A program made the position numbers and the translations under genes. A stretch of 64,000 bases of DNA from Callorhinchus milii (taxonomy: Eukaryota): contig NW_024704748.1 in the NCBI RefSeq assembly GCF_018977255.1, positions 17,732,001 to 17,796,000 on the forward strand. The letters are read 5' to 3'. This document shows, one piece after another, positions 763 through 52,800 of the stretch. Below the pieces are notes generated by a model. It did not search any database. It was not told the DNA's origin and saw only the letters and a program-made list of their open reading frames with translations. How positions within the stretch are numbered: the first letter of the stretch is position 1; each line of letters begins with the position of its first letter.

Positions 763-800
763 CTTTTAAAGCAAACCATATCAATCATTAACTTGCAATA

Positions 801-1376: not shown

Positions 1377-1439
1377 CACCTCTATATTGGCAAGCCCCAC
1401 AAAGCAGTTTAATAACTATTTTCATGTCACAAGTTTAAA

Positions 1440-2040: not shown

Positions 2041-2211
2041 TTCATGAGTGTAGACTCTCACAGGAACACCAAAGGCACGGGCAAGTCCAAAGTCAGCCAA
2101 CTTAATAACCCCTTTACTATCTATCAGTAAGTTTTGAGGCTTCAAATCTCTGTGCAGGACTCTTCTTGAGTGACAGAAGGCAATTCCTTGTAGAATTTGG
2201 TATAGGTAACT
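2041..2211 (-). CDS. CDK1: CDK1 coding exon 4 ([57 protein letters not shown])
   Basis: Acceptor ttttcag| and donor GAA|gtaagt; 171 nt; contains [11 protein letters not shown] and the T-loop Thr (VYTHE). Confidence 0.97.
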
Positions 2212-3088: not shown

Positions 3089-3212
3089 CTTAACTAGCAT
3101 TTGGTCCATCAACTGACCAGCAGGTAAGGAATCCAAATATTTTTTGAGATCCATAGAAAGGAATTCAAATATAAGGTACAACCGAGCATCCTGCATTAGA
3201 ACATCTTGAAGG
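3089..3212 (-). CDS. CDK1: CDK1 coding exon 3 ([41 protein letters not shown])
   Basis: Acceptor ttttag| and donor AAG|gtattt; 124 nt; contains the hinge [11 protein letters not shown] typical of CDK1. Confidence 0.96.
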
Positions 3213-4844: not shown

Positions 4845-5063
<219 letters not shown>

Positions 5064-12399: not shown

Positions 12400-13450
12400 T
12401 CCATTTCGCATCGCGAAAAAAAAACGTATCGATTCAAGGATTGCGGACTTGCACATCGCCCACTCGAGGTTTCCCTATCAATACACGCGTTTATCCGCAC
12501 ACTATTGATCCACCTGAGAGAAGGTGTGTGAAATCGGGCTTCAAAGTCATTCCAGGGAAATAAAACGCAGGCGAGTTCTCCAGAACCCCCCCCACACACC
12601 CCCCCACACCCCACCACACACCCCACACCGCAGCAAACTGGAAGTTTACTTAAATTAACCCGAACATCGATAACGATTACAATCTCAACACCTTGGTTCG
12701 GTTTCCAGGAACACGCCGAGGCGGGGGGGAGGTTTGGTGGGGGAGAGGGGGAGAGAGGGAGAGAGGGGGGTGTCCGGCGAACTCACAATAACCTGTCGGC
12801 TGCAACACGATTTTAGTTTCACTTTTCGTACACGTTTTCGTTGCTGGGAGGGTTTCCCTGGGGAGAGAGATGGTTTATTCCGGCGCTGTGCCGCTGTAGG
12901 GGTCGCGTTTACTGCCGTCTGTGGGCGGCGAAGTGCGCGCAGACCTCACGCACGGCAGCGGCCGCTGTACCTGCCGCAGGTCACCCCGTGGGGCACCAGG
13001 GCACGACTTCCCGAGCGCACCAGCGGGTAGACAACGGGAGGGAAGCCACTGCCCCCGGTGCCGAGGCTCGGGACAGGTCCGACCAGAGAAGCTCCGTCAG
13101 CAGCGAGCAAACAAGTCGTGCCTTCAGACCTGCGAGCACAGCAGCAGCGACATGGCCTCCAGCCCTTCGGGAGGTGGTGACACCGACCCGCAAACCCAAC
13201 AGGTGAGGTGGTTTTTTGTTGTTGTTGTTGTTATCTATTGTAATCTATATATGTTTATATATATATATACGTTTCAGTCGTTTCCTCGCCGGAGCCCCCG
13301 ATGCTGTACGCGGCTCATACACACACACACACACACACACACAAAAAAAAATCACCTTCGCATCCACACACTCGTAACTCGGTAGAAAGCGGCACCGCGT
13401 TCGCTGAACCTTTGGAGAAGTGTTAACGCTGAGCCCTGTAACACAGCAGC
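12400..13450 (+). promoter_or_regulatory. ANK3: Second CpG island: promoter of the ANK3 distal first exon
   Basis: GC- and CpG-rich block that contains the ATG and donor of the exon 1a-like segment. Confidence 0.7.
13152..13202 (+). CDS. ANK3: ANK3 (ankyrin-G) distal alternative first coding exon, exon 1a-like: MASSPSGGGDTDPQTQQ
   Basis: Kozak context gacATGg, 17 codons, phase-0 donor CAG|gtgagg, inside a CpG island. Resembles the recalled human ANK3 isoform N-terminus MASSASSSPAGTEDSAPAQ, and the head-to-head position next to CDK1 matches known vertebrate synteny. Confidence 0.75.
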
Positions 13451-30109: not shown

Positions 30110-32369
30110 AAACAGCATCAGGAAAGAAGCTGCCTCTAGAAATATCCATTTAAGGACTCTTAAACCTTATTTGATCAGGTTGAGTCAAAAACAAATGGCA
30201 AATTGAACTATACAAAGTTTATCTATTTGCTCAGAAGATTGTAAGCTGTAAACAATTATAGTACTTTTTTTTAAAATCAGAAAGCTGACTAAACCTGGAG
30301 TGATGGCTCTTACTTTAAGTGAGTCAAAGCAATTCTCTTGAATACCTCAGGGAGGAAAACTGCCATTAATTTCACCTCCAACAATGGGTTTTGAATCAAA
30401 TGGAATAAAGATTCTGACTTGGTTTCCATTTCTCACCTGTTGACTTATTGCTCAATAGACAGTGGTCATTTTGAAAGAGTTCGGTCTGTGATTCATTGCT
30501 GACCAACCTAGTATTGTGTAGATACTGTGATTTCTCACTCTCCTCAAATATCCACAAATTGATGGATCTTTATTTTTATTCAGCTAGATTGAAATAGAAT
30601 AATTTCTGTATTACACAATGCGCTGTAGGTTTTACTATTTTCAGTTTTCAGAAAGTATTTATTTCCCCCTGGTGCAGCGCCTGATTGTTTACCTCTCATG
30701 GTTCCATCACAGTGTTTGCGTGTGGTTTTATGTCAGAACATTGTGGACATTTTAGATGTACTTTCCTTTCATCCAAATTTAATTTGCATTTGTCATCTCT
30801 ATTTGACCCACTAAGATTAAAAANTGGTGACCCCTAATTTACTTACTTAGCTTACTTACTGAGGCCATAATGTTAAATTCTGTAAAATCTAATAATATAG
30901 GTCAAACACTACATTTTGGTGAAAGTGAGGAAATGCATGAATCCAATTGCAGTCCACATAGGTTTAAGAGTATGAGTACATCCCTTTCTTCAAATTTCCA
31001 CATTTATAGTAGAATCACAATAGAGAACTTGGCTTGGAAAATGTTAACTAAAGTGATTAAAAGCCAGGCCTGATTCTGTGAGTCTCAGATAAACACATGA
31101 TTCTCTGTTTGGTGTAAGCATCAAGCATTGCATTACAAAGGCAAAACGTAAATTAAATTGACAGGGAAATAAAATCATTCGAGTTAAAATCCCTCTGTTT
31201 GTGGCAACAATTTGTGCGGCTCACTGCTCATTACTCCACAACCCATCTAAGCAGACCAAAAATCCTTCACTTTGGAAAGTGAGCCCCTCCGTAGCCTGCT
31301 ATAGTGTTTTCCAAGTAGAAAAATGGGTGTTTGTGTATTTCATTGTGCAGTTAGTGCCTGTGGTGGGAGAATTCACATAGTTAATCTATCAGCATTTCCA
31401 CTGTGCATAGTTGATGTGAAAACAAGGAGGGGGTAGATCTGGCCAATAACTGTTTTTCAAACAGATGCTGAATAAAATGGTTTCATTCTCTTGCAACGAG
31501 ATGTATAGAAGAGGGAACAGCAGGAAGTGCAGCAATGTCCTATCTAATGGTTTAGATGACAGGGCAGTTCCTACATGTCCTCTTAACTCTGAGATTGGAT
31601 TGCTAACTCAAATCTGCTTGCTATTGATTTCTCATAATTCCTACTTTTTTTAAAAAAAATTGTTCAATTTATTCTGCTGCTTTTTGTCTGTCTGGAAAAC
31701 ATGAGGTAAAGAAACTGTGGGTATGTATTCGGTAGAGTGCACTGTTTGTTTTGGTTTTCCTTGTGATACATCACATTTTTAATACTTTTCAGGATTTTGA
31801 AATAAGCTGGTGGTTAGAGGAAAAGGTTTAGAAAAGGTTCAAGGTGGTGAGAAATCATTGTTGCAGACTTGTAGGAAAGTAACCTCAGTGGTCCTTAGTC
31901 ACTGCATAAGCTTGAAGAGTTCACTGGAGGAAAGGTGTCTGAGCTGTTGATTGGGATTTGTGGATTGGGATACCTTACATCTGAGCATGTGTAATATCTA
32001 GAGCAATGAATAACTCCTTCAAATAAAATATTTTAAAGTAAAATATATATATTCTACTTTTAAGATGTTGTTCACTGTACTTTGTGCTAAATTACTGCCC
32101 GTGGGGTGGGTCAAGGGAGGTGCTCCCAACCTCAGCTGCTGCAGTTGTATAATTGGTTCCTGAGGGTCATCCATCACTGACCAAAGGCAATTTACTACTT
32201 GGTGCTAACTTCTCCAATAGATAACTCAGGTGTGGATTTGAAACAGGCAGTGCTTTTTGTGCACAATGTTGTGACACAATGCAGCCAGGTTACTGAATGT
32301 AACAAGACTGTTTGTATTGGCCCTTCAGCACCCAAGAGGAGAGTAGATTTTCAGGGATGGTTACAAGAT

Positions 32370-32524
32370 AATAATAAAAATAATAATCCTTGCATTTGAT
32401 ATAGTGGCTTATCATGTCTTCGAGATGCCTCAAAGCGCTTCAGAGAATATATTGTAAAGTGAATTGACACTATATTTTGTGGGTGAAACGTGGCAGCCAA
32501 TTGCGCACAGAAGTGTCCCACAAA
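32370..32524 (-). mobile_element. SINE 3' fragment
   Basis: aataatccttgcatttgatatag..cagccaattgcgcacag. Confidence 0.82.
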
Positions 32525-32989
32525 GATGGGCCTATTTGAAATTGGTTTCAGAATTTCACAATGTTATGCTTGGGCTGGGGTTTGGAAAGTGGCTTAGCAA
32601 TTTTGCCTGTTAAAAACTGTCTGCTGAAGCATGAATTTTTGAAGTATTTCTTCAGGAGAAGTAATCCCCACCTTGCTCTTTCTACTTGGGGTCTCTGAAA
32701 AGTGGAAGCAGAAGATTATTTTATTGGTCCTAATTGTTGTTTGTTGGCAGACTGCATTCCTGTCCAAGTACTAAAAGGTTACATTTAACTTTTGGGTAGA
32801 TTACTTTATCTGAACATCTGGCTGGTGTAAGAATTCTATTATGGATATGTAATGTCTGCTGGCTACTCACCCTCTCTATTACCAGGGAAATCAAGATGAA
32901 AAGATATTCAGCAAAGTTCCTTTTGAGGGGCAGTAGAAGAATCTTAAAGATTGGGTCTGACACATGTGGTGCAGTGACTCACTGATATA

Positions 32990-33218
32990 CTCCATTCATT
33001 TTGTCATGGTTAATGAACAAAAATGCATTACACTTTCATTGACCCAATGGACTTTTCTACAAATAAAAACAAGCTTGGGTTCTAAAGTACCTTTGCTGGA
33101 GTACCTAGAGTACCAAATTCCTAAGCTAGGACCCAAGCTTGTTTTTTGTAGAAAAGTCCATTGTGTCATTGAAAGTGTAATGCATTTTTGTTCATTAACC
33201 ATGACAAAATGAATGGAG
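32990..33218. repeat. Long near-perfect inverted repeat (~95-bp arms, ~42-nt spacer), MITE-like
   Basis: ctccattcattttgtcatggttaatgaacaaaaatgcattacactttc..aagcttgggt is mirrored by acccaagctt..gaaagtgtaatgcatttttgttcattaaccatgacaaaatgaatggag. The mirror-image ORFs 32964+ and 32996- reflect this. Confidence 0.95.
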
Positions 33219-33280
33219 AATATAGAAATCTTTGCTTCCATTTATTCAGGCAGAGGTTGTGCATTTTGTACAATATTTAG

Positions 33281-33367
33281 AAATGTTAATTTATGTCCAT
33301 TTACTTATATTTTGCAGGTAAGTCCTCTTTGAAAGGATGTTATACTTTAGCTGGAATAACTGTAAGT
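33281..33367 (+). other. ANK3: Candidate recursive splice site (3'ss AG 33316-33317 fused to GTAAGT) and 44-nt RS/poison exon 33318-33361
   Basis: Sequence reads ttacttatattttgcAG|GTAAGTcctctttga...ggaataact|GTAAGT. There is an AG-free zone upstream and an in-frame TGA inside the exon. Confidence 0.7.
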
Positions 33368-35859
33368 ACTGCTTTCCTTGATGCATGAATGAAATTAGAA
33401 TTACATTTGCAGAGTTTCCAGATATTGTATGGAGACAATGTAAATGTAAAAGTTTTAACTACATTAGTAAATGAGGGGTTGAACCTATTGAACCTCTAGT
33501 GAAGCTTTATCTGAGAGTTAATTCAGGACAGACTCTATATAAATCCCAGGCTAAACATACTTGCACCTTGAATTAACTCTAGATGTGTGTGTGTAGCCTT
33601 AGAACGCTGTGCTGAGCTCATGGAAATCCCCCCCTCCCCTCCCTCTCCGCTGTAATATAGGTATTTGTGTAAGGAGAACATGTTGTTACTTGTGGAAAGC
33701 AAAATAAAATACGATGGCTGAAAATGTACAACTTTTGGTTTGGTAATGTTTTAAACATGACATCTGCACAACTATGAGCTTTTAAATCAAACTAAAGGAA
33801 AATTTAATTTCAATAGAGCATTAAAGTTTATTAGTTTGGGATTAATTTTTGTTTTATTGCAGTGAGGATTTTGTGAATGTAATGATATTTTGGCTGCAGC
33901 TTTTATAATTGAATCAGGCATTTGCAACTCAGAGGTGTGCCACAATGCTTTTCAATGGGAATAATATCCCTCATCTTTATATTGAGCGTCTTAATGACTT
34001 TATTTTCCATTGTTGTAATGAGACTTGCTTGCAGTAAATTGATCCAAGATCATTTGGGTGCCTTGGGAACAAATTTGCTCAATGAGACCTGCCATCCTCA
34101 CAGGTCCACTTGCAAGAAACCGATTGCCAACTTAAGGAACAATCCTCCATAGTTGTACTTGGCAAGCCTCAAAATAAATGAACTTGAAACCATGAGGATT
34201 TGCTGAAACAAACCTGCTCCACATTGTTAATAATTGCCCAATTGTAATTTGAGCATGAAAGATGTCAAATGTTCTTTCCAGGTGAAGAATACCCAACCAT
34301 TAGGTGTAAAGAATAAAACAAATTTACTTTCACAAAATGACTATGTGTTACTGGAAACTGAGGGCAATTATTGACATAAGATATACAATTTGGCATCTGG
34401 TGAACAGCCAATTTTCACCTTAGTTTCCATTTAATTGCTTCTTTCTTCTCACTTTGCCAACTCCCGTGTGTTGTCCCTATCAGAAAGGCAGGAGAATGCA
34501 GCCTATATATGGACACATGAAGGATTGTTGCAACTTCGAACAGCAGGAGTCGCACTTGTGATATACAAGCTACTATCCTTGCATGATCACATTTTCTGGC
34601 TGGAACTTTTGTTTTGGTTAGCTGGGTGTCTGACACATGCAGACACCCATCACCATGCTTAACATATCCAAACCAGACTGAGAGTTCCATGTATGTATGC
34701 CTCCTACACATGGAAATGTTCTTGGCCATGATGATTTGACTAAAACTGTCAAAACTCCTTATCTTGTGAATTATGAATATTAATAATGAAGAGGTTTTAG
34801 TGATGTGTCACTGGCCTGCTTTTACTTTTTTTTAACTAAATTAATTAAATTACTTAAATCCAAAATGCTGTGATGACATCGCAAGTTCATCAGCATCTAA
34901 CAGTGAGAAAGGTTAATGCTATAGGAATGATTATTCATCAGAAGTGGGTCTCGGGTATCAACACAGAGCTCCTCTGACTAATCCTGGACTAATTCTGATT
35001 TTAGTAAAAAGCCAGCCAAGAGATTGGCTCATTAGCATCATTATAATCTGTTGCATTTTGCTTAATTAGATGCTTTATCAGAATTGATTGCATTATAATT
35101 GGATTCATCATGCAACTTTGGAGTGAGCTGAATCTTGACTTGATGTTTCTAAAGCTTGACTTGTACTGTATGTTTGATTTATCAACTGAATTGTATGGAA
35201 TTGATATCAATTGGACTATAAATCGGGTATAAAACTGATGCTGATTGATTAGATGTCAGTAGGAGCAGCAGCAGAGCTTACAATTAGTCTCCGTGGCCCT
35301 GGGCTAGGGAGAGCAAATGTGCCTTACTTCTTCACCACTATCTGGTGACCCATGCAGGAAAGTGTGTCTGTGTCTGCGTGTGGAATACAAAATGAGGAGA
35401 AGATCAGACTTGGATGTAGTTTGTGTCCCTGTCACCTGTATTCCCACCCGAATAAACTCAAATATCTTGTGGATTCTTGTTGTCTAGGTTTACATGTGAA
35501 GCTAAAGGAGGGGGAGAAATGGGCGGAATGAAAGTTAATATTTTTTTAAAAGGAATATTGATACTGAATCACCATTGCTGTTTTATATCATTACTCCTCA
35601 CTTTCCATGTCTAAAAAAAATTGGCAGCATTCATGCAAAGCCGATTGCAAAATATTCTACACAAAAAGAGTAATGAATCTGAGTAACCTTTAGGTGTCAG
35701 TATTTTCTATCTTATCACAAAATGATGCTGCTGGATGTGAGGATGAACAAATACCATCTTTTTGTATGTGATTTGATGTTTACCCAGTAAATTCAGAAAC
35801 AGTAATGATCAGGGAAACTGAACAGCAAAACCTGTGTGAATTGTTTCTGTGGTGACGGG

Positions 35860-36320
35860 AAGCTTAACTAAGCCAAACCCATTAACACCATGGCTACAAG
35901 AGCAAGGCAGAGATTAGGTGCTCCTAGAAGAGTGGCTCAGCTCCTAAACCCTCAAGCCTTTCCACCATCTACAAGGCTCAAGTCAGGAGTCTAATGGAAT
36001 ACTAGTGACTTCCCTGGATGGGTGCAGCTGCAACTCAGTCAAAGTTCAACACCATTCAGGAGAGAGCTGTTTGTTTGATCGGCATCCAGACTGCTTGAGT
36101 CAACATCCACTCCCTTTCCCATTAAACAATGGCTGCTGTGTGTCATACTTGTAGAATGAACTATAAGCAACTCGCCATAAATGAGCAAGCTCTCCCAGCC
36201 CTGCATCCTCCACCACCCAGAAGAATAAGAACAATATCATTTTGGGAACACTGTCACTTCCGTTTCCCTCCAAGTTGCACACCATTCTATACTTGGCATA
36301 TATCATTGCTCTTTCCTTTG
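35860..36320 (+). mobile_element. Degraded non-LTR retrotransposon RT C-terminal fragment (family distinct from the L2 and CR1 copies here)
   Basis: LSTIYKAQVRSLMEY..PWMGAAA..FNTIQERAVCLIG-like translation interrupted by stops and frameshifts. Confidence 0.7.
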
Positions 36321-36707
36321 TGATTTCTAGGGTTTTTAATATTATGCTTCTTAGCTGTGGTGATTATGAGGTTCCTCTTAGTTATTTCAATATATTAGAG
36401 GCAAAACAAGGCACTCATTGGCTGATAGTTATATTCACAGGTAGGTTGGGAACTATTTAGCAATGAGGAGTATAGGGTTGAAATGCCAGTGTTGGGGGGA
36501 ATAGCAGGTTGACTAGAGAAAGCTTAAGAGTAATTGGGGTATCATCTGCGATGGCCCCATTTTAAGTTTGGATCTTCTCAAGTGATTAACTTGTTACTTG
36601 AGTGAACTAAGGTTATCAGACAGGATAATAACCACGACAATCAATTTGTTCCAATGTTTATGGTTTATTTTTGATATTGGTTGTTTTGACGCCCCATCTG
36701 ATTTGAA

Positions 36708-36860
36708 TCAACAACACCAAATTACATTTATGTAGCGCCTTTCACGTCAGGAGGACGTCCCAAGTTGCTGGACAGTCAGGGGGTTGGGATCAGGAGGGGT
36801 GTAGGGAGGGTAGAGGTAGGAGAGTGGCCGAAGGCACGGTTGAAGAGGAAGAGGGAAGGG
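36708..36860 (-). mobile_element. L2 3' end
   Basis: tacatttatgtagcgcctttcacgtcaggaggacgtccc..gaaggcacggttgaagaggaa. Confidence 0.78.
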
Positions 36861-38769
36861 GATGTGCATATAAATAGATCTCAAAAGTAAGCTTCCTGGG
36901 TAATTAGCTTAGCTGCCTTGAATGGATCAGTGATTTGCTTTTACCCATGTAACCAATGGGGCAATCTACCTTGAACACTAGTTGTGAAAATGAGCAAGAT
37001 TGAAAGGCCAGTTTAGCAAAGTCCAGGTAAAATGGGACTTCTCTATAATTGTTCCTCCTTGTTTGAAATCTATGATCTAGGTTCATAGCAATCAGTATGT
37101 AAGTGCAGCCTGGAAGAATCATTTACAGTTAAAATGCTAACAATTGGGTATTGAAGATCATATTAATGGTGCAGAATGAAATTGTGATCTTGGCAGGTTT
37201 GTCGATTCAACTCTTGTGGATGGGCATAAAATAGGAATTTTAAAAGAAAATCCTGTAAAGGGATATGTGACATTAACTGATGAATAACATTTTGACTACA
37301 TCTCCTCTGAGAAAAAAACTCTTTAGAACATGTTGTAAATACAAATATAAAAAGACAATTAGAGCAATCGCATCAAAGTTTACATGCAATATCCCTTTTG
37401 ATGAATTCTACGCCATACTATACTTTTCACTGGAGTAATCTACCACCTCTGAGCTATTACATTTATTTAATACTTTCACATTAATTGGCAGTAGCGAGAA
37501 GTAATGCATTTTTGTGCTAGACAGTCTTTAGTGTTTTGTTCTTCTAACATCACATTGCCACTGGCATATATTAGTATTCCCACAGAAGCCTAGTTTCCAT
37601 GGAGAAAGCATGTCGTTGTGCTTTGTTGCCATGGCAGTCTTCCCCTGTGATCTGCCTCCTGCAATTTAACCAGTGCCTTTACTTTCTGACACTCTGGCCT
37701 TGAATGTCAACCACTCAGAGATGTCCTTGGAGGTCTTTGACACAAATAATAGCCTTGCCTACCTGAGGGCAAGACAGTACACCAAGAGTTGATGCTGAAC
37801 ACAGATGTTAAATTGTAATTTCTTCTGTTTTTTAATTTGCTTTTGGCAAAACCTTTTTCATAGGGAGATTCTGAACCTTTCTTTGCAAATGTATGCAATG
37901 TTTAACCAGCAGAAATGTCTCTTTCCAAAGCACGCAACATTATCTTTGTTCCAGTTTACTATGTACAAATGGATTGAGTTCCTTAACTGTTAAATGTTAT
38001 AACATTTGTATGTGCATGCTAACTGCTGTCCAATGAGGATGATCCATCTGATAAATCAGTGGGTAGTACTGGTTGCTCAGGAAGGCAAAGAGTGAAACCT
38101 GCTCATAAAATCAGTTCAATGGCCTTTTCTTTCAATTCACTGGCTCAAAGATCTCAGCTACTGTTCTGCCCTGTCATATTCATGTCAATGTTCCTGCTGT
38201 GTGCACTCTTAATTGTAGGAGAGATGAATTTCAACTAGTTGATTTTATTTGCAAGCTAAACACATTTAGAAGGTGGCAAGCCTACAGAGTTGACAAGTTT
38301 TCAAGAATTCAGTAGTTCACTGGTTTCCCAAATGACAAGCAGTTGGGGACATCACAGGAAGGCGGATGTAAGCAGTGCGCTAACTCATACCCTGTAACCT
38401 ATACTTTCAACAGTAGAATCAGTGAGATTTTGAACCAATGACTAGTTACACTTCATCTCCTCAAGATGTTTACTTGCTTAGGGTGAGTTATGGTTTCAAC
38501 AATTGCCCTCTGTTACTTTGTGCAAGTAGCTGTTATTCATGCGTGAGACAATGAGCGTTGCTAAACTGTTCAATTGTGTTTACTTTCCAGCAGGGATCAC
38601 TGAGGAGACTTTAGAGCTAGTACTTTAGGGTGTGAGTCTGGAGAATATGCATTCCATTCCAACAAGCTATCTCTGAGATTTGCATGTGTAGGTGGCACGC
38701 ATGGAAATCTCAGCTTGGTTTGGATATTCTTAAGCATGGTGATCAGTTGACCCAAAAATAAAAAATTCA

Positions 38770-39090
38770 GTTGGTAGCACTCTTGTTTCTGAGTTACAAG
38801 GTTGTCGGTCCACGGCTCACATCAAGAATTTGAGTTCAAAGTCTAGGTTGCATTGTTGGAGATACTGTCCTTAGGATGAGATGTAAACCGAGGTTCTGTT
38901 TACCTATTTACAGAGACGTTAAAGATTCCATCACTGTTTGTGGAACATTGAGGTGCACATATTGATTGCGATGTTTCCCTATAACTGTGTCATCACTACC
39001 CTCCAGTTCTATTTTTCACATGAAATTCTGTGAATTGCTTTGAGACATTTTAATGTTATAAGCTGCTATTTCATATGCAGGGATTGTTAT
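38770..39090 (+). mobile_element. Old DeuSINE-like element (SacSINE1/AmnSINE1-type core); related copies at ~43290-43500 (-) and ~23125-23260 (-)
   Basis: ggtagcactcttg..ctgag..aaggttg head, then gtccttaggatgagatgtaaaccgaggt..gttaaagattcca resembling the Deu-domain as recalled, and an L2-like tail. Confidence 0.6.
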
Positions 39091-42000
39091 TCTTTCCACT
39101 ATTGTGATTGATACACTCAGTACAAGCCAACAATCGGGCATTCCTGGTCTCTGTCTCTGTACTGAGGTGGACTGGGCAGTATTAGTCCAAGCTGTTGGCA
39201 GTTGATTTTACTACTTGTCTTTCTGTCTTGTCTTTATGTCTTTGTTTGTTTGTTAATTTATGCAAATTTTAGCAAGTGGTGGCAAATTACCCTTTGGTTT
39301 CCTGCTTTTTAATTAGAGGAACAGGAAAAGAATCTGCCACACCTCTATTAGGTAGGTGGATTACGGGCATGCATTTAAGAAAAACCTATAGCCAAATAGA
39401 ATTGATATTAGGCTACATTTTAGTTTATTCTACTCTTTATAATTCAGAATTTAGCACATTCTATGTATGCCCTTTAATGCCTGTTGATTGCTGGATGAGT
39501 AAAAGTCCAGACAATTTGGCAAAAGATTGACGTCACACCTTATTCTTGGATACTAGAACAACATAACAGCTGAAAAAAGTTCATTTAAAAACTGGAAGAG
39601 ATTACCTTTATCTGGTAATTAGTACTGGTGTATTCAAATGAGTAGGAATATCCACATTTGGACAGAAATCTACGGACTGCCTGGAACCGTGGATGTGAAT
39701 CGTAGCGTAGGTGTTGGAAGACACTACTTTTTGGCTTAGGCGTGGATTATCTATTCTTTTCATTGTGATTAAAAATGACAGACTCTTGCTAAATACAAAT
39801 TTGTAAAACCAACTTAAAAGGGCAGGAATCTACCTCTTTATGAACAAGTATTGGATATAAAGATCACATAAAAGAGTATTGACTGCACATTAAAGCAATA
39901 CAATGAAATGTATCTGGATGAATTTTGTGATTGCATTATAACATAAAAGGAAAAAGGGTATGCCATTTAAGAATACTGCTCCCTCTTTTCAGCTTGTTGG
40001 AAACATGCTGTATTTTTTTCTATTGCAGAAATGAGAGTGGTTAAGAACTTAATTTGACCCTGTAAAGGTTCGATTAATTCTTTACATCTGTAACTGCAGT
40101 ATGGCCTATTAGTCTTTGGAGGAGTTGATTTCTTAGATTTCTATGGTGGAACGTTTGCGGTAGGTTGCATGGCCTGCTAGCTTTATGATGTGTGAAATGC
40201 ATTCATGGAATATTGCCACAAAAAAGGGTCAGAAATTGGTTTTGGACATTTTCCAGACTTTTGTTGTCCTCTACCTGCTGCGAGTGTTCTGCTGTGCCCT
40301 TGCCATTCACATAGCTCTGGTTTTATGGCAGGAATGTTAGTCATACAGTGACTCTCTACATAGTGAGCTGAGGGGGGACAAGGGAAGGCAGATGAGGCTG
40401 AGAGAGATTTCAATAAATGTTTAATAAATTGTTGATTGTGGCTAATTCTTTCTAATTATATACTTCTCCACGTATGACCTTTGAAATTCGGTATAAAATG
40501 ACTATGAACCTCAAGTGCATTCTTGTAAACCAGTCGCTGTAACATTAAAAAGTTGGGTGTTCATAAAAATCTGAGTTTTGGATTGCCGAGGCATTGGTAA
40601 AGATTTCTGTGGAACACGATAATTCCACAATGCGTGAATGGTTGAACCACGCTACCTTTCTGTTAGCGCTGCTCTCGTAACTTTTATATTGGCTTTTCTT
40701 TATCTCAACAATAAATTCAACTTTTAGAAATGAAATCAAGAAATGAAAAAGGTTGCCAAACACTTTTTTTATGAAAATGCTACCTACTGTTTCATTGTTG
40801 AAGCCTGATACTTGTGTCAGCTGAATTAAAATTCCAAATGCAGTTTGATGAGAAGCTTTCTAAAATTTGACCATTGCCTATGACTTATGGGAAAGTCATT
40901 CACAAAAGGGAATTACATGAGCTCTTTCTTGGACTCTGTATTTTGCTGCAGCTCTGAAGCTTCGAAATATATCAATGCCTTTAGAATCACTGAGTAATCA
41001 CACTTTAATACCATTTGAGAAAAAAAATGATATTTTGGAGAGTGCTCACTGCACTAAGAATTGATCTTTTATATAATTTTAAAGTGCCCAACTAGCATTT
41101 ATTAATATATCCCATCCATCTCTTTATTTTTTTATAGGCTTTAGGTAGCTGACTAGAGTGTCTTAAATCATCAGGTTTACAGACTAGTCAATATAACATT
41201 TGAACAGATGTTTTGGAGAAGTTGAGTGCTGACACTTGGATTGAGTTATGTAGTTTACGTTACATTTTTATGTGTACTGAGATGTGGTTAGATTTACTCA
41301 TTGACTGGTTTATTCAAAGTTCCAGATCTGACTTGATGATCCAACCTTGATAAAATGCTTTACACTGAAAAGAATAGCTAATATATATAGTTAAAATATG
41401 CAATTAGATATTGATGAATAATATAATTTTGTTTGGGTGAAAAACACCTTTTTTTTCTTGCTTCGTTTCCTCCAAAAAAAAACTGAACATCATTTTATTT
41501 GTGAATTGCCAACTTTACATTAATAAACCACTGCTAATGTTACACAGAAGATGAACTCTTGTTGCTTTTGCTGACTCTGGTGTGTGTCACTGGTGTCTGT
41601 GCTGTGAAACAAGGGATTAATACACTTCTACAAAAGATGTATGTTTTCCCAGTTCTGATTGTAAGTGGTACATGGAGTAGTTCATCCATTTTAGAAATCC
41701 TGTCTGGACCTTATATGATTTACTGTATTTGATGCCTAAAGAGGTTGTAATGACCTTCTTTGTTCCTGTTACAGCTGAACGGGATCCCTGGTTGGGAAAA
41801 TCCACCCAGCACATTTGGTCACATTGTCATAGTTACTGCTCCTTTGGAATCTGCCTCAAGTAGTCACATGGCAATGCTGATGGTGAAATAACTACATTAA
41901 ATTTTGTGCCAATGTTAACTCCACTAGATTGCTGCCACCAAGACTGTAATATATTCAGGATTTTATTTCCCCTCTGCTGAGCTGCTTAGCTGACTGTGGA

Positions 42001-42597
42001 TGAGTAGGATCATCCAAATATAGTAATATAATGCAAATGATAATTATCTATTTTTATTTTGAAGGAATTAATCAACAGCTTCAACTGTTTTTGTTTAGAT
42101 ATATTCTCTGTTCAGTGGGAGTGGGAAAAAATCCTTCTGTTCTCCAGTTTCATTTAAGGTTTGTTCGTTTGAACGTATTCCTTTAGTTATATGCTCCTGT
42201 AAGAGTCACATTTCTTGTTTACATCACCCACATCTGTTTTGTCTGTCTATTGGGATTTTTAAACCCTGGATTATATCTACATCAACCTTCTTTCTCGTAA
42301 TAAACAGTTTCACTTGGTGAACCATTCCTCATTACTTAGAGCCCAAACAACTTTGTTGCCACTCTTTTCTGAAGGTTTTATGATGCATAGATCCATGTTC
42401 TTTTGAAGGGAAGGTATCCCTAATGGCAGAATGTTCTTCTTTAGTTCTGAAGAAATTTTTATGATCACTGATGATTGGGAACACCAGTAAAAGGAAGTAG
42501 ATTGCATTGGGTTTGAGTTCCTGTCAGTCAGGTGGTGCACATGCTAGCCAAAATATTAGCCATATTTAATCAGAATGCACTTTTCTGTCAGTGAATA

Positions 42598-42980
42598 AAC
42601 AACAACAGCTTGGATTTATATAGTGCCCTCCACGCCGGACGGCATCTCGGAGCGCTTCACAGTAACGGATCCCAGGGCCGAGCCAGGGGGAGGAAGATGA
42701 CCAAAGGCGCAGTCGAAAAAAAGGTCTTCAGCTGAGACCTGAAAATAGGAGGAGAGGGGGTGAGGCCAAGGGAGTGAGGAAGGGAGTCCCAGAGCCTCGG
42801 GGCATAGTGGCTGAAGGCACAGCTGCCGAGGGTGGAGCGGAGGACTTGGGGGACAAGGAGGAGGCCAGACTCGGTGGAACAAAGGCAACGGGCACTGTTT
42901 TGAGGAGAGAGGAGGTCAGAGAGGTAGGGGAGTGCAGAGGAGTGGAGGGATTTGAAGACAAGGGTGAGGATCTTGAATAG
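42598..42980 (-). mobile_element. L2 LINE 3' fragment
   Basis: FKILTLVFKSLHSSALPYLSDLL..AFSHYAPRLWDSLP..LKTF. Confidence 0.88.
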
Positions 42981-44924
42981 CACTTATTGGACATATAATG
43001 TGAACTAGTCTAAAAAACGTAGTTTGCAGTCCTCAGCTGTTAGTTTACACAGAAGAAATTTGATACTTATCTCAGTGTAATAGATCAGACGCTGATGAGA
43101 ACAAAAGGAATTTTTACTCCCTTGAAAATCTAGCCCCCAAAATGTATCAAGAATTTAGAGGCACTAAATCAGGTTCAAACACATTTTTATTTCCACAAAC
43201 CACCATGAATTGAATGCCAATTTTAGCTGTAGAGGGGGTTGGGAAAGAGGAAGAGGTGTTGGCTTCTCTTTATGAAGAATGTCCTGAGAATTTTAACATC
43301 CAACTGGGCATTTGGGGCCTCGGTTTAATATCTTATTCGAATGTAGCACCTTTGACAATGCAACAGAGCCCCCAGAACAACACTGGAATGTTAGTAGAGA
43401 CTGTGCGCTCCAGCTTCCGACGTGAGGCTTGAACCCACAACTTTCTGACTCGGGTAAACTACACGGCAAGCACACACACAGTCCAATACCTGACAATGGC
43501 TTTGAATGAGATACCACAGGGCTGTCAATATAACAACCCAGGAAGGATCGCTTAATGCGGAAACATGGCATCATTAGTGAAGAATACAATTCCTCAAACT
43601 GAAACAAATTGCTTTGAAGAAAAGGGCTGTGGGTCAATTTAGATGTCTTTCTTTATGCTAGCACACCCACAAAAGTTTAATAGTCCAGATAAATTTATAT
43701 AAACCTTTGGCAATTGAATTGTTACATTAATGAAAATGTAGGTCCTGCTTCTGGTGGGGGACAAAGAATATCATCAGATATGTAAAGAGCCTTATAATGA
43801 TTCCAACAAGAAAACATTTATTCAGAATACCTCCGGGGCCCGTTTACGCTAACATGAATATAAATTATTTGTTGCTATGGTGATGAAGCTGGTGTCCTGC
43901 TGTGTTATTACCTGGTGGTAGTAAATGCTTCTGCAAATTAAATTGGTAACTGACTCAGTGTTTGTATGTGACCAGCATACAGAATTTGGGGGAATACTTC
44001 ATGTATGGATATTGTTTCTCCAATATAATTGCATAGATTACACTGAAGGTTTTAACATTTCCACGTCTGATCAGAGATGCCCTCTATGAGAAATATATGG
44101 TTAAGCACATTTCCATGTGTTGTACAACAGTCTTGTTTTCAACATAGGGAAATAGTGACTAATTAAAATGTTGGACATGTACATTTGCAAAGCTGACTGT
44201 GGAAAATAGATTATTTCAAATATTTAGACTACTGTCCTGCAATTCAGCTAGTGATTTAAAAATACAAATTCAGTCTCTTTGCAGTTTTCAGATGTGCAGG
44301 TCTCTGGGTTTCATTTTGGTATTATTACCCTGGCATTGACTTTTTGAAATGAAATTAACATCACGTGCACCAGTCACCATGGAAACCGAGAAGACCCAAG
44401 GTATCGGGCAACAGAGATCCTCACTGGAAATAGTGGAGTGAAGCATTCAATAGATCTCAGTGTCAGATTTTCAATCTGTCGGAATCTGATTAATTTTAAC
44501 AGTGATTAATGCCTGAGTGGCAGGTGCTGCCATTGCACAGTTCTATTTCACATCAATAATTCTAACTGCTGAATGTGTTCTCCTCTGTTGCTGTGATAGC
44601 AGCAGAGTAGCAAATCATCTGTGATGGTAAAGTACACAATATCCTAAGTGACAAATACAATAATAGTGACCACTGAATGTAGGTCTCAATTGTAGCCTTT
44701 GTATTGGACACTGACACAATTGCAGAACGTGCCAGAAGGTTCTCTGAGAAGGTGATAAAATTTGACAAGCTTGAACATTTCTGGAATTACAAAATCTATC
44801 TATGTATTTTATAATTATGTCTACATTTTATGATTATTTTTTCATGGAACCTAAGCAATCTGCTTTTGATATTACCAAGATCCCAGAAAGCTATTGTGGA
44901 TCGCAACAAGTATATTGTAATGTA

Positions 44925-45280
44925 TTGGTTAGAGCACTCGCCTCACAAGCAAGAGGAGCTGGTTTTGATTCTCAGTTGTGGCGAAACCTTAGGCAAGTTT
45001 CCTTACTCCACACACGTCTGTTTACCTAGCAGTAAGTGGGAACTGGTGGTTGGTCAATTGGCAGATCGCTTTTCTGGCGACAATAATCCCTTTAGAAAAA
45101 AATAATAATTTGGTCACTCAATCCATGTCTGTTTGTGGGACACTGCTGCGTGCAATTGCCTGCTGCGTTTTGCCCACAAAATATATAGTCACTACATTTC
45201 ACAGTATATTCTGTGAATCTCTTTGCAACATCTTGAAGATGTGATAAGGTGCAATATCAAATGCAAGGATTATTTATTTA
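44925..45280 (+). mobile_element. Near full-length tRNA-derived SINE
   Basis: tggttagagcactcgcc head, body, and tail caaatgcaaggatt. Confidence 0.87.
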
Positions 45281-46944
45281 TAAGTGTATTCACTGCTATT
45301 TTTGCAGTGCTTTAAGCAATTAAAGCTCTCTAGTGATGGAAGAAGCTCTGCTTGGTGGAGTGGTGATTGGCTTCATGGCACAATTCGAATGGTAATTTAA
45401 CAGATGATAGGTCGTGTCTCAGAAAATCAAGCACTTTGATGTGTCAGTGCAGCAAGCCTGTTTTCAGGAGATAGTCCTTTACAGTTGAAGCATAAATATT
45501 GCTGTGCTAATGGTGGGGAAATGCATGTCAGTGCACAATGAATTTATGTAAGGAAAAACCTTAACTCTGACACAGAATAAATTGACTGCAACAAAACCTA
45601 CTTGTGTATGCGTTTCTATTGTTTTTGGCATGAGATGAAGCTGAGTGCTGCAATGGGATCAATGCTATGACAAATATGAGCATAAATATTTTGACTTAAT
45701 TTTTGCCTTTATGAATTTGTTTCACTTTTGCTTTCAATTAACGCTGAGGAAGAACAGCCTACTAGTAATCAGTTTAGTAGAATTCTCTAGCAAACCGCTT
45801 CTTTGTTGAATAACCACATCTTAAAAAAAATGATTGCAACTGCTGGTTCCCATGAAGCGCACATCACATGTAACTAAAGAGATGATGATCTATTCTTGTT
45901 CGAGATTGGTCACCAGGAGGTGCTAGAGAGTTATTTTAGGATTGTCTCTGTAGCTTCTGTTGAACAGTTTCCATTCGTGATTTGGATGAGATACGGAAAT
46001 TCAGTAGAGTTGGGCACATGCCAGCATTTGACCACTGATACTGTGTGCTGATGCTCCAACTGCTCATCACACCCCAACTCCACAAACTTTTAATGCTCTA
46101 TTGTGACGGTTAGTTACAAAGCAATGCAGTCAGTTTGTGTTTTTAGAAGCAGTAAAATAGAACAGTATGATTTACAACCTTTATAAATCATTGCCTTCAG
46201 ATGATGATCCAACATGCTGCTATGTGGGAAAGCGAGAACACAAAAATAAGCTATCTCATGATGAGCCAGGTTTTTATCCAATTTTGACATCAGTTCAGAA
46301 CTGAATTTTATATGTACCTGCACTTTTTACAGTACATTTAAAATAATTAAAATTTGAACAGATTTTACAGGGTCATTACTCGTTGACTTGCTTTATTTGA
46401 GTTCCTAACATATTTCTGATATATGTAGATATGACAGCTCTCACTCTAAACTCTTTTGCTATCCACATCATACCAATATTAGGATTACATTCTGATATTC
46501 GAGCAGTGATTAAGGCAGCTCACATCCTTCCCGTGTTTAGTTGATTAGTAGACTTAGGGTTTAAAACCTCTGAGAAGATTACTTATTGCACACAGTGGGA
46601 ATTCAATCCAGCATTACGTAAGTTCAGTAGTTCACTTTTGAAACTCCCTTTAAAATGAATTTCAGCCCTTAAAGAGGGTGGCACTGATATTGTCAGTGAA
46701 GGATGAAGGTGGTTATAGCACCAGTGAAAAGACCCACTGTAACACACACTTTAAAAGTCGTAGCACCCTAATGAACAATGTGAGTTTAATATTTATATAA
46801 TTAATTTTATAGCCATACTTCAACTAAGCACTTAATATGATATAGCAGCAATGTCATGTATTAACACTAAATATATTATTTTACTTATAGAAGTGATCTT
46901 TTTGAGGTGCCATTTCTCTAGATGCCTTATTCATAATTGGTTTC

Positions 46945-47180
46945 CAACAACAACAACTTGCATTTATGTGGCGTCCTTCACGCGGGGTAATGTCCTGGAG
47001 TGCTTCACAGTGGCAGAGTCCGACGATGAGCCAAGGGGCGAGGGAGCGGGGAGGTGACCATAAGCACAATCAAAAAGGAAAGTCTTTAGGTGGGATTTGA
47101 AGGTGGGGAGGGAGGGAGTTAGGCGAAGGGTCTGATGGAGAGAGTTCCAGAGTTTTGGGGAGTAGTGACTGAGGTCACGG
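46945..47180 (-). mobile_element. L2 3' fragment
   Basis: SHYSPKLWNSL..FKSHLKTFLFDCAY. Confidence 0.82.
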
Positions 47181-48369
47181 CCATTGTGAATGCAATCCAC
47201 TAATGAATGCAACAAGCATTCAAGCTATTTGCATCACAGTATGGGGCATAAATATTTGTTGATAAATTGCACAATGACCACTTGTAGAATTTGTGACTCA
47301 ATCTTGGTCAGACCACTGAACCACCAGGAGAACTGGAGCTATCTGGCTAAAAAGCTAAATTATTAAACCTAAAAGAAAAGTTCTTACAACACAGAGATGT
47401 TTGTGTGAGAAAAACACAATGGGGGAAATAAGATGGAGGCAGTTGTCTTGATCTTTTAAGGCAACTATTTGTAGTAAAACATTTCCCAGTAAATGGCTAT
47501 GTAACTTCCTATAAAAAATGTTTTCCTAAGTATTTGCTTTTAAAAGAAAGGCTGTCTCTATTGTCAGGATGGGTGGGCTTTGTTGCTTCTGTTTTGGAGG
47601 TCAATAGATCTGAAGAAAAAAAATGGAAAGTTAATTAACTACCAAGGGATTGATTAGCACAGCTATTCAACTCCCTGACACCGACACACCATGCTTTCCT
47701 TTCTAATCTTCTAACTGGTGTAAGAAGTGGGATCATATTTAACCATAGTATTAAAAAGAAAGAAAATGCTTATTTTTCCAATTTGTGAAACTAAGGGTCC
47801 TGCAAACGTATAAAGTTACTGGGATTTGCATGCAATACTGACTTTTAGCACTATATGTCAGCAGTGTACTTGGTTATTGTGATGCTGTGCAGTAAAAGGA
47901 GAAAGTATAATACCCATCACAAATTATGTGGACTGGGAATAACTTCCTGTATGAGCAGAAGATATGGTGATCCAAATCATTATTCATGAAATGATACGAG
48001 AACCAACTTGTCACAGGTGTAAATTACATTGACTGCATAAAAGATGGGTAACTGGAAGTTTGAAATATTGCCTCAGTAAAATATTAGTGTTTCACTAAAA
48101 TATATTACGATTATCTTGGGATCTAAAGTGCACCATTTTAATTATGCATTTTTATAATCTTTCGGAAGTCATATCTGAGTGAACACCTAGCATAAGTTGT
48201 ACTGTCAAATGATTGTTACTCTTCTCTTTCACTTGGATGGATCGTGTTTGAAAGTATTCATTGTAAATGATTATGTATGTCATAGAAGTATAATTGCATG
48301 TTGTATGGTATGTTATGAGTCATGATTTGTTGAATACACCGGTGTAATGAAATGCAGTTGAATGTTTTT

Positions 48370-48695
48370 CCTTTATGCCCTGGCACTTTCCTACCTCTCC
48401 GACCTACTTACCCCCACAACCCGCTGCCTCCACTGGACTGGCTACGGCCTTCTGCATGTCCCTCTTGTCCTCCGTTCCACTAGTGGTGGCCGCGCTTTCA
48501 GCCCCGAAACTCTCTATCCTTCCGCCTTGCCCCTTCCTTTCCCATCTTCAGGTCACGCCTGAAGACCTGTCTATTCAACGATGCCTGGGTCACATCACCC
48601 TTCTCCCAGCTTGGTGTCGTGCTCCATTATTGTCAAGCGCTCTGGGACATTACCCAACTTGAGGGGTGCTATATAAATGCAGGTTTTGTTGTTTT
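48370..48695 (+). mobile_element. L2 3' fragment
   Basis: LALSYLSDLL..GGRAFS; tail gctatataaatgcaggttttgttg. Confidence 0.8.
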
Positions 48696-49807
48696 TCATA
48701 AATAACCTCAGTCAGACATCTTTAACCTTGCTTAATCTCCAATATTACATGACATGCCAAAAAACATATTTTTTAAAAAAGCGAGTATTGTATTTTAAAA
48801 TCCAGTACAGGAACTGCGAAACAAGTGTAAACAATATTAACATCGCATTAGTCCCCAGAAGAGGGCATTGTTCATAGCTGCAGACAGTTACAGTGGAAGA
48901 TATTTACGGATAGTATTGGATTGCTCACCCATGAATCTTAATGTTTTAAAACTGTTTATTATTATTAATTTATATCTGAACGTATGCAGCAGTAGAAAAA
49001 ACATGTGATCAATAGTTAATTAGCACTTCATAAAAGAGCAGACAGATTTAATTTAATCTGTTTTTAATTTTTTTTAAAAAATGGTGAGACAGAACCACTA
49101 CAAGGTACTATTTAAATGTCATTAGTTTTGAAAATGCTATCCTATGACTGTTATCTTGAAATGTTACATACAGTCTGAAGGCTTGAGATATGATATTGTT
49201 GACACTTTTTCAACAATAATATTTTGGGTAACTTGTCACCTTCCATTAAGTCATGGAATTACCAGCAGTGGCCTTCTTTAGGTTACTTGTAACCCAATCT
49301 GACACGCTTTCAGGCTTCCTTTTCTCCTAGAAACTGATGCTTGTTTTTAGTATTCTTAAACTAGTGGCAACACCGGAAAATTACAACTGGCTTTCTTGGC
49401 TGTGGAGAGAGAAATTCATTGACTGTGTGCTTCAGGGATTTGTCAGCAATCTGCAGTTAATTTCTGAGTGTAGTTCACCAGCACCACTCAGAAACTGGGG
49501 AGTGGATAAACAAACAAGTAGCTTTTGTCACAGTACTACTGTGCATTATGGAAAAAATATATGATTTTTGGAGAAGAATAATTTCTTGTGAGTAGCCACT
49601 GCCTCCTGTGAAGAGGGAGAAAGGCTCCAGTAATTCTAACCTACTGTGTAACTAGCTGGTGCTCTGCTTAACCAGCAGTCATGCTTTCGTCTGTCCCCTG
49701 AAACGTCATCGGATGGACTGTGGCTTTGATTATTTTGTGATTACATGCAGCAGCTCTGGATGTCGGAATAACAGCAGTGAGCTCCTTTCCTTAATATACT
49801 AAATAAG

Positions 49808-49870
49808 ATGAGCGAGGAAGCAAAGAAAAATGGTACAAAGCCTGCTCACAGAAAGAAAAAGGGGAAAAAG
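49808..49870 (+). CDS. ANK3: ANK3 alternative first coding exon, exon 1b-like: MSEEAKKNGTKPAHRKKKGKK
   Basis: 21 codons with a phase-0 donor AAG|gtaaat. Very close to the recalled mammalian ankyrin-G exon 1b peptide MSEEPKEKNAKPAHRKRKGKK (same length, shared KPAHRK.KGKK). Confidence 0.9.
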
Positions 49871-52800
49871 GTAAATGAAGCAAATGTAAAACTGATTTCT
49901 GTTCTGTTTAGGTTCATGCTGCTATTTTCCTGTTGATCATCAAAAGGAAAGTTTAATGTATCCAATCACTAGGGCAAACAATAGAATTTAAATTCATAAA
50001 GGGAAAGAACTTGCTAGAATGGGAGTTGGTTTGTTTACGCTAGCTTCTGATGGGTGTGTTCAGTGTGGGCTTTAAATGCTTGAACAGCACTCCTGTTCTT
50101 AATACTAGACAATATTAAAGGCTTAACTAAATGGTTAGTTTTGAGTTTCTGACCAGAACAGCACTAATATAGCTTTGTTTTTACCATACGTGTTAATGTA
50201 CTGATGTAAGCTTTTTTTTGACACTATTTGTTTGCTCAATGAACATTTTAACGTAATCAGTTTTATTGATGAGGACCGATGAAACTCTGTAGTTGAATAC
50301 AGCATCCTCCAAATGGTTTAAATAATTGAGCAATGAATAATAAAAAGTGACATTGCAAGCAAAAATCAATATTTAAGAAAAGGCTTTGCTTGTAAAGAGT
50401 TGAATTTCAAACCGCTTATTAAATATTTGGTCTTTGATTATAGGCGCATGAAATTTTTAATGTTAGGTTTTTAAAATCAAACCTCAAATTTACGTTTAAA
50501 ATGGTGTTCGAGAAGCCTCACAGAGACTCCATCTCTACTGTTGTTGATCATTTTCAGCAGACAGTACACAATCTCTATGGCATGCAGGGGTTAAGGATGA
50601 CAGAAGACAGATACAACTGACAGCAAAATTCCATGTTCTTGTTTATTCCGTCTGTGACTGGATTAAGAATGTATTGGGCATTGTGGTTTTGCACTTCATT
50701 ATCAACCTTTCTTAATGAAGCAAATTTCAGTAGTGTTATTTGTCTCTTAATAAACCCTCAAGTATACAAGAAGACTCAGCTGGTAAAATGTTTTTCTCTA
50801 TACACAGTATGTATTCACAAACATAACATTTCTGTTCTTCGGACAAATAAAAACAATATAGGTAAGGAACCACAGAAGAGTTGTGGATAACTTTTAAAGA
50901 TTGTGCTGATATAAGGTTGTTAATGAATAAATGCTATTCTTTACTGTCCTTAAGGAATTGAAAGCCTCACTTTGAATTCTCTGGGGGGATGTGTTTGTCT
51001 TATGTGGCATTATTATCAATCTGTCAAATCTGGTGACGATTTGGAACTCAAGATGTACCATTTTCTTAAAGCGAATGGCAGAAGGAGAATCAATTTTGTG
51101 TGTATTGTGCTCTGTTACAGTTAGTAATTACCACTTTCATTAATGTAGTGGTTATCAAAGCATATAGTATACATCAAACACTTATCTGTTCCCTTCTCTT
51201 CTACACATTTTCTCTGCATTTTGCTGTTGAGATGCAATAAGATGTCCAGTCAGATCTTGATGACAATGTGCTTCGATCTCCATGTATAATCATACACCAT
51301 GTTGTCATCAGTAATGTATCAGTTAATCAATATATTCAGGAGGCGATAAAATCAGGATAATCTATGATGGAAATGGTGTATATGGGGTTATTCTGCTGCT
51401 AAACCCAACAGTGGGTGTGGTTTCAAGACATGGAACCATTTTATTTAACCCTTTGTGTACTACAGTAGCATTTCAGCACCAGAGGGATGTTTATGATTAA
51501 CACTTTGCCCTTTGTGTTTAAAATCCAGAAATGAATTTGCCCTTTTTTTTTATTTCTCCCTTTCCTCTCCACCCCTAGCAAACTGATTTGTTAATTCACC
51601 CAATTTGAAATATAGTCAATACTCCATTTGTCCATTGTAAGTGTCACCATAGGCCACGTAGTCATTTGATAGTACTCCAGATTACTTGTTCAGAAAGAAC
51701 CATTTGTGGGAGTTTCAATCAAGTGTGAGTGAGCAGATTTAAGAGGTGCAAATTACTGGTCTGACCCATGAGTCATGCGTGTTACGTGGGAAATTGCTAA
51801 ATCTTCAATCAGACCTTAATCTGCTGCACCAAGAATAACATTGTGCAGAAACCTTTGGAAATAATGTTGGAAGTGTCACAGAACAAAGAACGTGTTTTAT
51901 ACTGCATATCTACAAATGTAATCTGAACCAGCCATTGACATCATGGACAAAGTGGCTGGATCGTACAACTCGAGACTAGCCAGCTTCAGGAAAACAAGTG
52001 GTAGCACAACAGAGGAGGCAGCAGCAAAAGAAACCTTAGCCAACCCCTTGTGTGTGTAAACCTCCAAACACTCCTGGCTGTCCATCAAAATAACTCAGGA
52101 CTATAATTCAGTTGTCAATAGGATTCCTGCTTGGTTGATAGATTAGTTTTTAGAGAACTGTTGATGGTCCAACAGTGATGGTAACAACATTTTTTATACC
52201 AAACCTGTTATTTTTAAAACTTTACCCCTTAGTTTCTTCTCAATCATTCTGAAGGTGTGAACTCTCGCTGTGATACAGCAGAGAGGTGCCCCGTCAAACT
52301 CCAGCACCTTGAGTAAGTGACCATTATTTCGGACTTTGTTGACCGTTAGTTGCTCTTTCAAAATGGGAGCATGAGAGCAAAGCCCAATCCTATCCTCAAC
52401 CAACATCCATCCATATACGTGTAAATTCACTGTCCAATAACCTTGAGCAAAGGTTTATGATCTCTTAGTGAAATTGCTCATCTGTTAATTGATCTTATTT
52501 TCTCAGTCAGGGTTGTGTATCCAGATAGACTCTCAAACGTGTGATCAGTTGCAGAACCCATTTGAGTGATGAATTTGGAAATTTTAAACCATTTGAGAAA
52601 ATATTTTTGTCAAAACTTTGACACGTTTTGGGTACCATTCTTTCATTGATGCTGAAGATGGGAGAATTGCTTCCAAAGCAATCCTTATTACCCCTCAAGG
52701 AATGTTGATTTTTTTTCAAGATGAGACTGGGGATTCCATTTGTTGCAAGCTGATATGATTTTCATATTCATGTCGATCAATGTAGTTCAGATAATATAAA

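Follow-up and report, generated by a model that had tools for sequence, protein, structure and literature searches.

The window, that is, the whole 64,000-nucleotide stretch of Callorhinchus milii DNA analysed here (G000:C7:17732001-17796000), holds two alternative first exons of a gene whose numbering we carry on past position 64000 as "extended" coordinates. The sequence-only reading had named this gene ANK3, and this was borne out by a downstream ankyrin exon that is 100% identical to C. milii proteins named ankyrin-3 and by the exon-by-exon mapping of an ankyrin-3 protein onto the DNA neighbouring the window, with the ankyrin exons starting about 87 kb past its end. Along the extended coordinates, exon 1a is followed by the flagged site (site 1), the MSEE first exon, a second site of the same type (site 2), the MAHAA first exon and exon 2 (Table 1), and the donor of exon 1a is separated from exon 2 by a 138-kb intronic region, which places site 1 in the long 5' intron of a long gene; mouse RS introns exceed 51 kb. 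It was by likeness to bird MASSS…Q first exons and to mouse exon 1a, with its 57-nt CDS ending AGCAG (PMC4449188, Table 2), that exon 1a was identified. A search for an in-frame shark protein starting with this exon found none, being a weak test with a single candidate, and the splicing of exon 1a to exon 2 in C. milii is a presumption. Head to head with ANK3 lie minus-strand coding exons (143-5063), which we take to be CDK1-like from their motifs, and the ANK3 intron contains a minus-strand reverse-transcriptase fragment (57007-58214), presumably of LINE type, again from its motifs. In the mouse Ank3 table, the order is exon 1a, 85 kb, exon 2a (39 nt), 50 kb, exon 1b (63-nt CDS), 173 kb and exon 1c (114-nt CDS), and mouse brain makes only minor use of exon 1a as a start (PMC4449188).

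Table 1. Features of the shark ANK3 5' region and of related loci (window numbering, extended where marked; C1 and C7 denote contigs).
Feature	Position	Strand	Remarks	Basis
ANK3 exon 1a, coding part	13152..13202	+	51 nt, 17 codons, phase 0, ends CAG|GTGAGG	sequence
Exon-like unit using CAG|GTAAGT as donor (rival reading)	33250..33317	+	68 nt; acceptor 9.8 + donor 11.1	
Candidate branch point TGTTAAT	33284..33290	+	A at 33289, 29 nt from intron end	sequence (presumed use)
AG-free pyrimidine tract and 3' splice site (CAG)	33291..33317	+	acceptor score 10.1	
Site 1, CAG|GTAAGT, acceptor directly abutting donor	33315..33323	+	G at 33318; rank 2/512 sense AGGT sites	
Candidate cryptic RS-exon	33318..33361	+	44 nt; stop at fifth codon	sequence
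Downstream donor ACT|GTAAGT	33359..33367	+	G at 33362	
ANK3 second first exon (MSEE…), coding part	49808..49870	+	63 nt, ends AAG|GT; corresponds to mouse exon 1b	bird isoforms and mouse table
Site 2, AG|GTAAGT	C7:17809706 = extended 77706	+	13.7 kb past window end, 27.8 kb below MSEE donor; rank 1/512	
ANK3 MAHAA exon	extended 99378-99494			
ANK3 exon 2	extended 151179			
PDE4D AG|GTAAGT sites	C1:122004045, 122159517, 122191368	+	top three by score	
ANK2 RS-type unit, CAG|GTAAGT	C1:33517034	-	62 nt; score 24.2, best of 1,453; in-frame start MSTMLQK	

Site 1 had been flagged as a candidate recursive (ratchet) site, and every sequence feature claimed for it is present, in the architecture known from vertebrate recursive sites. 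No AG occurs between 33280 and 33316, which leaves a 36-nt AG-free zone, and the acceptor beats 35 of the 46 real ANK3 acceptors on a matrix trained on this very gene, so that by our own matrix site 1 joins the AG|GT motif to a strong 3' splice site. The tract itself is only moderately pyrimidine-rich (15/20 nt) and weaker than most of the 20 mouse recursive sites compared, whose tracts range from 12/20 to 20/20 pyrimidines (PMC8797253, tabulated sites). Read in frame 0, the 44-nt unit gives V-S-P-L-stop, which is the premature stop described earlier, and its GC content (34%) is close to that of the intron after it (30%), a resemblance also reported for RS-exons (PMC6110456). The donor that closes the unit is weaker than the donor that would be rebuilt at the junction with exon 1a: MaxEnt values taken from a published table (PMC8797253, S4) are 10.86 for CAGGTAAGT (rebuilt) vs. 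8.59 for ACTGTAAGT (downstream), and the donor matrix trained on ANK3 gives 11.1 vs. 4.6, in agreement with the earlier expectation that CAG|GTAAGT would outcompete ACT|GTAAGT. The downstream donor is in itself less remarkable, since a donor scoring as well as ACT|GTAAGT on our own matrix follows 61% of random positions, while an exact GTAAGT occurs 30-200 nt after 4.3% of them.

The rarity of the signal was assessed by scoring every AGGT site in the stretch from exon 1a to exon 2 with acceptor and donor matrices trained on 46 acceptors and 45 donors of ANK3. On these matrices, which carry the caveat of having been trained on ANK3 itself, site 2 scored 22.6 and site 1 21.3, with the next of the 512 sense sites at 17.4 and the best of 462 antisense sites in the same 138 kb at 17.8. 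Among antisense controls, none of 4,274 AGGT sites in 1.19 Mb reached 19, and in control regions of 400 kb around three paralogous genes, on both strands, none of 2,799 reached 21.2 and one reached 19 (20.5), which makes 0/7,073 control sites as high as site 1. We suggest keeping in mind that site 1 was singled out by a reader scanning many windows, and that one comparison site, in PDE4D, was reached via a pattern search. A genome-wide pattern tailored to site 1 gave 11 matches, with 20 for the reversed control. That site 1 is a strong but unused splice-like sequence, arisen by chance in an AT-rich intron, is a reading we consider unlikely. In its favour count the Markov backgrounds, with 0.02-0.05 sites as strong as site 1 expected per 138 kb (an estimate from only 1-2 events in 6 Mb), the ceiling of about 0.2 per 138 kb that the controls allow (rule of three, 0 in 1.99 Mb of strands), the single control site at 20.5, the eleven tailored matches, and the absence of a mammalian counterpart of site 1 from the tables of PMC8797253 and PMC6110456; what speaks against it is the setting of site 1, on the sense strand of a 5' intron in a gene that belongs to the few known to splice recursively, together with its branch-point-like motif, its AG-free zone and the exact GTAAGT that recurs 44 nt farther down.

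The same CAG|GTAAGT may also be read simply as the donor of an upstream cryptic exon, the 68-nt unit that ends where the putative recursive acceptor ends. Its score of 20.9 is the joint top among 624 exon-like units and its frame 0 is open, but its GC content is 28%, the branch-point and tract motifs would fall inside it, and it would shift the frame against the phase-0 exon 2, all of which leads us to regard this reading as quite improbable. Farther up, a single-copy long inverted repeat (32985-33223), with near-perfect arms of about 100 nt and a predicted long hairpin, ends 95 nt above the site 1 acceptor.

It was in the matter of orthology where the sequence-only reading failed, as it had taken site 1 for the orthologue of the ratchet point already described in ANK3. 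The human ANK3 recursive site lies at hg19 chr10:62,268,383, with the donor at 62,332,222 found 63.8 kb upstream of it and exon 2 found 229 kb downstream (PMC6110456, S2), and the mouse Ank3 site at mm10 chr10:69,595,048, 60.8 kb below a donor ending AAG, with a 79-nt RS-exon (PMC8797253, S3/S4). The distances in the mouse exon table point to exon 1b (the 63-nt MSEE exon) as the one whose donor precedes the published site, which would put the published site between exons 1b and 1c. Site 1, at 33318, is instead upstream of 49808, 16.5 kb above the MSEE start codon, and therefore outside the interval that the first exons MSEE (1b) and MAHAA (1c) enclose, while site 2 falls within this interval, which runs from 49870 to extended 99378. 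The published site and site 1 have in common the gene, AG|GTAAGT, a pyrimidine tract, a weaker donor shortly downstream, and a long 5' intron, and of these the same gene and the same motif are the points in favour of true orthology. The published site, though, lies below the MSEE exon and is used mainly by it: PMC6110456 gives 91 human junction reads at 60 min and at 120 min from the MSEE donor vs. 0 and 8 from the upstream donor, and a 39-nt exon at 62,374,943 also feeds into it at lower counts. With site 1 on the wrong side of the exon whose transcripts give most of these reads, and with site 2 in the right interval, we hold it very improbable indeed that site 1 is the true orthologue of the human and mouse site.

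Site 2, by contrast in position, is the likely orthologue of the published human and mouse site, the match being positional. As a fraction of the distance from MSEE to exon 2 it stands at 0.27 vs. 0.22 for the human site, and the gap is larger when the 1b-to-1c fraction alone is taken (about 0.56 in the shark vs. 0.35 in the mouse). It is also one of the 10 genome-wide matches to Y12-N-YAG|GTAAGT, for which the reversed control gave 42. Candidate donors below it are found at +86 (AAG|GTTTCA) and +158 (ATG|GTAAGT). Three bird ANK3 proteins open with a lone M before exon 2, and an exon ending ATG, as at the +158 donor, would yield such a start. Identity to mouse Ank3 over the 20-nt tract does not discriminate between the two sites (11/20 for site 1 and 12/20 for site 2), and over the last 14 nt, a window chosen post hoc, site 1 matches at 9 and site 2 at 12 positions, with real acceptors at 10 or fewer (n=47). 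Site 1 bears no significant sequence likeness to site 2 or to the ANK2 site.

A second ANK3 site is absent among the 84 mouse candidates tabulated in PMC8797253 and from the three human ANK3 rows with junction reads in PMC6110456, and neither ANK3 nor ANK2 appears in the four supplementary files of PMC10156609. Conserved human AGGT sites listed as unused stand at 62,445,122, 62,444,762 and 62,364,412 (PMC6110456, S1). Our search of a literature made up mostly of openly available papers found, among the papers listed, no report of shark recursive sites or of a second ANK3 site. The work of Sibley in 2015 is said to hold a list of 435 putative sites with a conservation analysis, and this list could contain a counterpart of site 1.

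The same scoring brought out further sites of this type elsewhere in the shark genome. One of the genome-wide matches precedes the PDE4 exons of a gene that, by its catalytic exon, comes nearest to PDE4D (144 bits vs. 113.5 for PDE4B). In 600 kb of this locus, AG|GTAAGT is the motif of each of the top three among 2,253 sense sites, the first having come from the pattern search and the other two unprompted, by score. One of them separates two first exons, whereas the other two follow the later of these exons and precede the shared acceptor, and this 1+2 layout is also that of the human PDE4D recursive sites (58,981,769; 58,764,261; 58,678,237) in the rows of PMC6110456 and of the mouse sites in the tables of PMC8797253, with relative positions of 0.53, 0.45 and 0.58 vs. 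0.45, 0.32 and 0.55. Across the ANK3, ANK2 and PDE4D regions there are six sense AG|GTAAGT sites scoring at least 18.9, and four of the six, namely ANK3 site 2 and the three PDE4D sites, match published sites by position; the fifth is the 62-nt unit of ANK2 and the sixth is site 1. Being the only one of these six top sites without an independent meaning, site 1 gains in its odds of being functional.

The ANK2 unit resembles site 1 in belonging to a paralogous gene, in its CAG|GTAAGT, and in lying between the MASS… and MAHAA… first exons, but differs from it in having an in-frame start and a relative position of 0.42, nearer to site 2 (0.47) than to site 1 (0.15). The likeness of this unit to site 2 is not significant, as 101 of 1500 random stretches reach an equal value, and no matching second site was found in ANK2, where the next site scores 19.5 and lies upstream of the ANK2 exon 1a. 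ANK2 and ANK3 share the MASS…/MAHAA… first-exon layout. As for the 10 genome-wide matches to Y12-N-YAG|GTAAGT, two are those in ANK3 and PDE4D, and for seven of the 10 no candidate host gene emerged from searches in which the I-set was dominated by one large Ig-repeat locus and the C2-set named none. The match at C7:14509840 is followed by same-strand exons coding for ZU5, and the one at C4:6428674 has a CCG|GTAAGT donor 51 nt on. The earlier proposal that the mechanism dates to early jawed vertebrates thus receives its support through site 2 and PDE4D, and not through site 1 as had been supposed; on the former, the jawed-vertebrate ancestor likely already had the recursive sites seen in mammals. 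Zebrafish conservation had been reported before for cadm2a, according to secondary sources, so the present step is incremental.

Site 1 also invites comparison with published RS-exons and with a small coding exon of amniotes. The cryptic RS-exons of CADM1/2, NTM, OPCML, LSAMP, PDE4D, HS6ST3, NCAM1 and ROBO2, as listed in PMC8797253 S4, have a rebuilt donor stronger than or near their own donor, as site 1 does, and the lengths in the same list, from 42 to 348 nt, include that of the shark 44-nt unit. Those published exons are backed by junction reads, saw-tooth coverage and conservation, whereas site 1 is a candidate from its sequence. Amniote ANK3 exon 2a, for its part, is a 39-nt exon (mouse ag/GGTGA…AAAAG/gt in PMC4449188 Table 2; human chr10:62,374,943-62,374,982), present in some bird isoforms and absent in others, in frame and coding. 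Like the 44-nt unit, it is small and lies between exon 1a and the MSEE exon, but the shark unit has 44 nt, runs into a stop and bears no protein likeness to it, and it was accordingly not assigned to exon 2a. Among 17 in-frame, stop-free candidates for a coding orthologue in the region, none resembles the bird peptide. A 39-nt exon-like unit at 40029-40067 (+), with an acceptor of 12.9 and ending AAG|GTTCGA, contains in-frame stops and lies 0.73 of the way from exon 1a to the MSEE donor, as human exon 2a does (0.73; 0.63 in the mouse).

These comparisons bear on the reading in which the acceptor of site 1 is real and its main product is an included exon, either a 44-nt cassette that stops at codon 22 and lowers or truncates the ankyrin-G made from exon 1a, or a last exon that terminates close to the AATAAA at 33703, and which could be the shark counterpart of amniote exon 2a. 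Amniotes do carry a 39-nt cassette exon in this interval, starting with Val or Ile in the bird proteins compared, and the EJC can keep RS-exons in (PMC6224609). On the other side, the donor rebuilt at the junction is close to the maximum strength, the 44-nt unit does not resemble the bird exon at the protein level, and both length and position make the unit at 40029-40067 the better fit to exon 2a. Sequencing runs also touch on this point: contigs of four of 12 runs (X1, X8, X6 and X9, taken to be RNA by guess) were placed on 30500-50400 at 85% likeness, where repeats dominate. Among the matches listed for this stretch, neither 33318 nor 33361 carried a junction or a loose end. X9 has a mean depth of 7.7 in the single-copy bin 33156-33819 and 0 in the next one, and X1 shows no repeat excess there, which would favour an included exon; this depth nevertheless holds for the bin as a whole, X9 is taken as RNA by guess, and a like signal (33.3) is given by X8 in the unrelated, single-copy intronic bin 45772-46435. 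X1, with a depth of about 10-20 in most repeat-free bins and flat across site 1, looks like DNA, X6 has no placements on 30500-50400, and the bin of the MSEE exon is uncovered in both X8 and X9. All told, we rate the included exon as unlikely.

Most likely, at a probability of roughly 0.58, site 1 is an additional, unreported recursive splice site, predicted for transcripts starting at exon 1a only. The acceptor and the ACT|GTAAGT donor would first define the 44-nt unit as an exon, and exon 1a would then be joined to 33318, with 20.1 kb removed; this join would rebuild CAG|GTAAGT, which is expected to outcompete the donor of the unit, so that the 44 nt would be removed as well, and the rebuilt donor could be spliced to site 2 (44.4 kb on), where the same donor would be rebuilt once more and joined to exon 2 (73.5 kb on). 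The 138-kb intron would in this manner be cut into 20, 44 and 73 kb. Such a course follows the model of exon definition and donor competition, in which skipping requires that the rebuilt donor exceed the exon's own donor (PMC6224609 and PMC6110456). The minor use of exon 1a in mouse brain could account for the lack of such a report from the mouse. Against this additional site counts its distance of 20 kb from exon 1a, shorter than the upstream exon-to-site distances of the mouse table, which run from 61 to 519 kb (PMC8797253, S4). To the same side belong its weaker tract, the absence of a second ANK3 site from the mouse and human rows and of a matching one in ANK2, the want of likeness to site 2 and to the ANK2 site, the sequencing matches listed above, and the caveats on how site 1 was scored and picked out.

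A minority of transcripts would be expected to retain the 44 nt and to stop at codon 22. Stops very near the start codon can escape NMD, and no further in-frame Met comes before residue 147 of the mapped ANK3 isoform, so that "poison", the term used in the sequence-only reading, may here mean truncation instead of decay: the stop is there as described, and decay by NMD is uncertain. Taken together, site 1 is a real and unusual sequence and the right type of element, assigned to the wrong orthologue, with a putative recursive use.

Why a few long neuronal genes retain recursive sites is still an open question (bioRxiv 10.1101/2025.08.14.666599). The four shark counterparts of mammalian sites sit in intervals of about 0.3 to 0.65 times the human length, and their presence in cartilaginous fish in these shorter intervals argues that they are retained for a reason other than sheer intron size. 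As a tentative possibility, the 138-kb first intron of ANK3 would be removed via two serial ratchet points, the upstream one specific to exon 1a and either ancestral, and then lost or made into the coding 39-nt exon 2a in mammals, or still there but missed since exon 1a is minor in brain; with site 2 and the three PDE4D sites in their mammalian layout, the vertebrate set of recursive sites would by then have been fixed in the jawed-vertebrate ancestor, surviving large differences in intron length. The reason for such retention might be, to offer one example, control over which first exon yields a productive transcript, and an extra site open to one promoter only would be a clean test of this idea.
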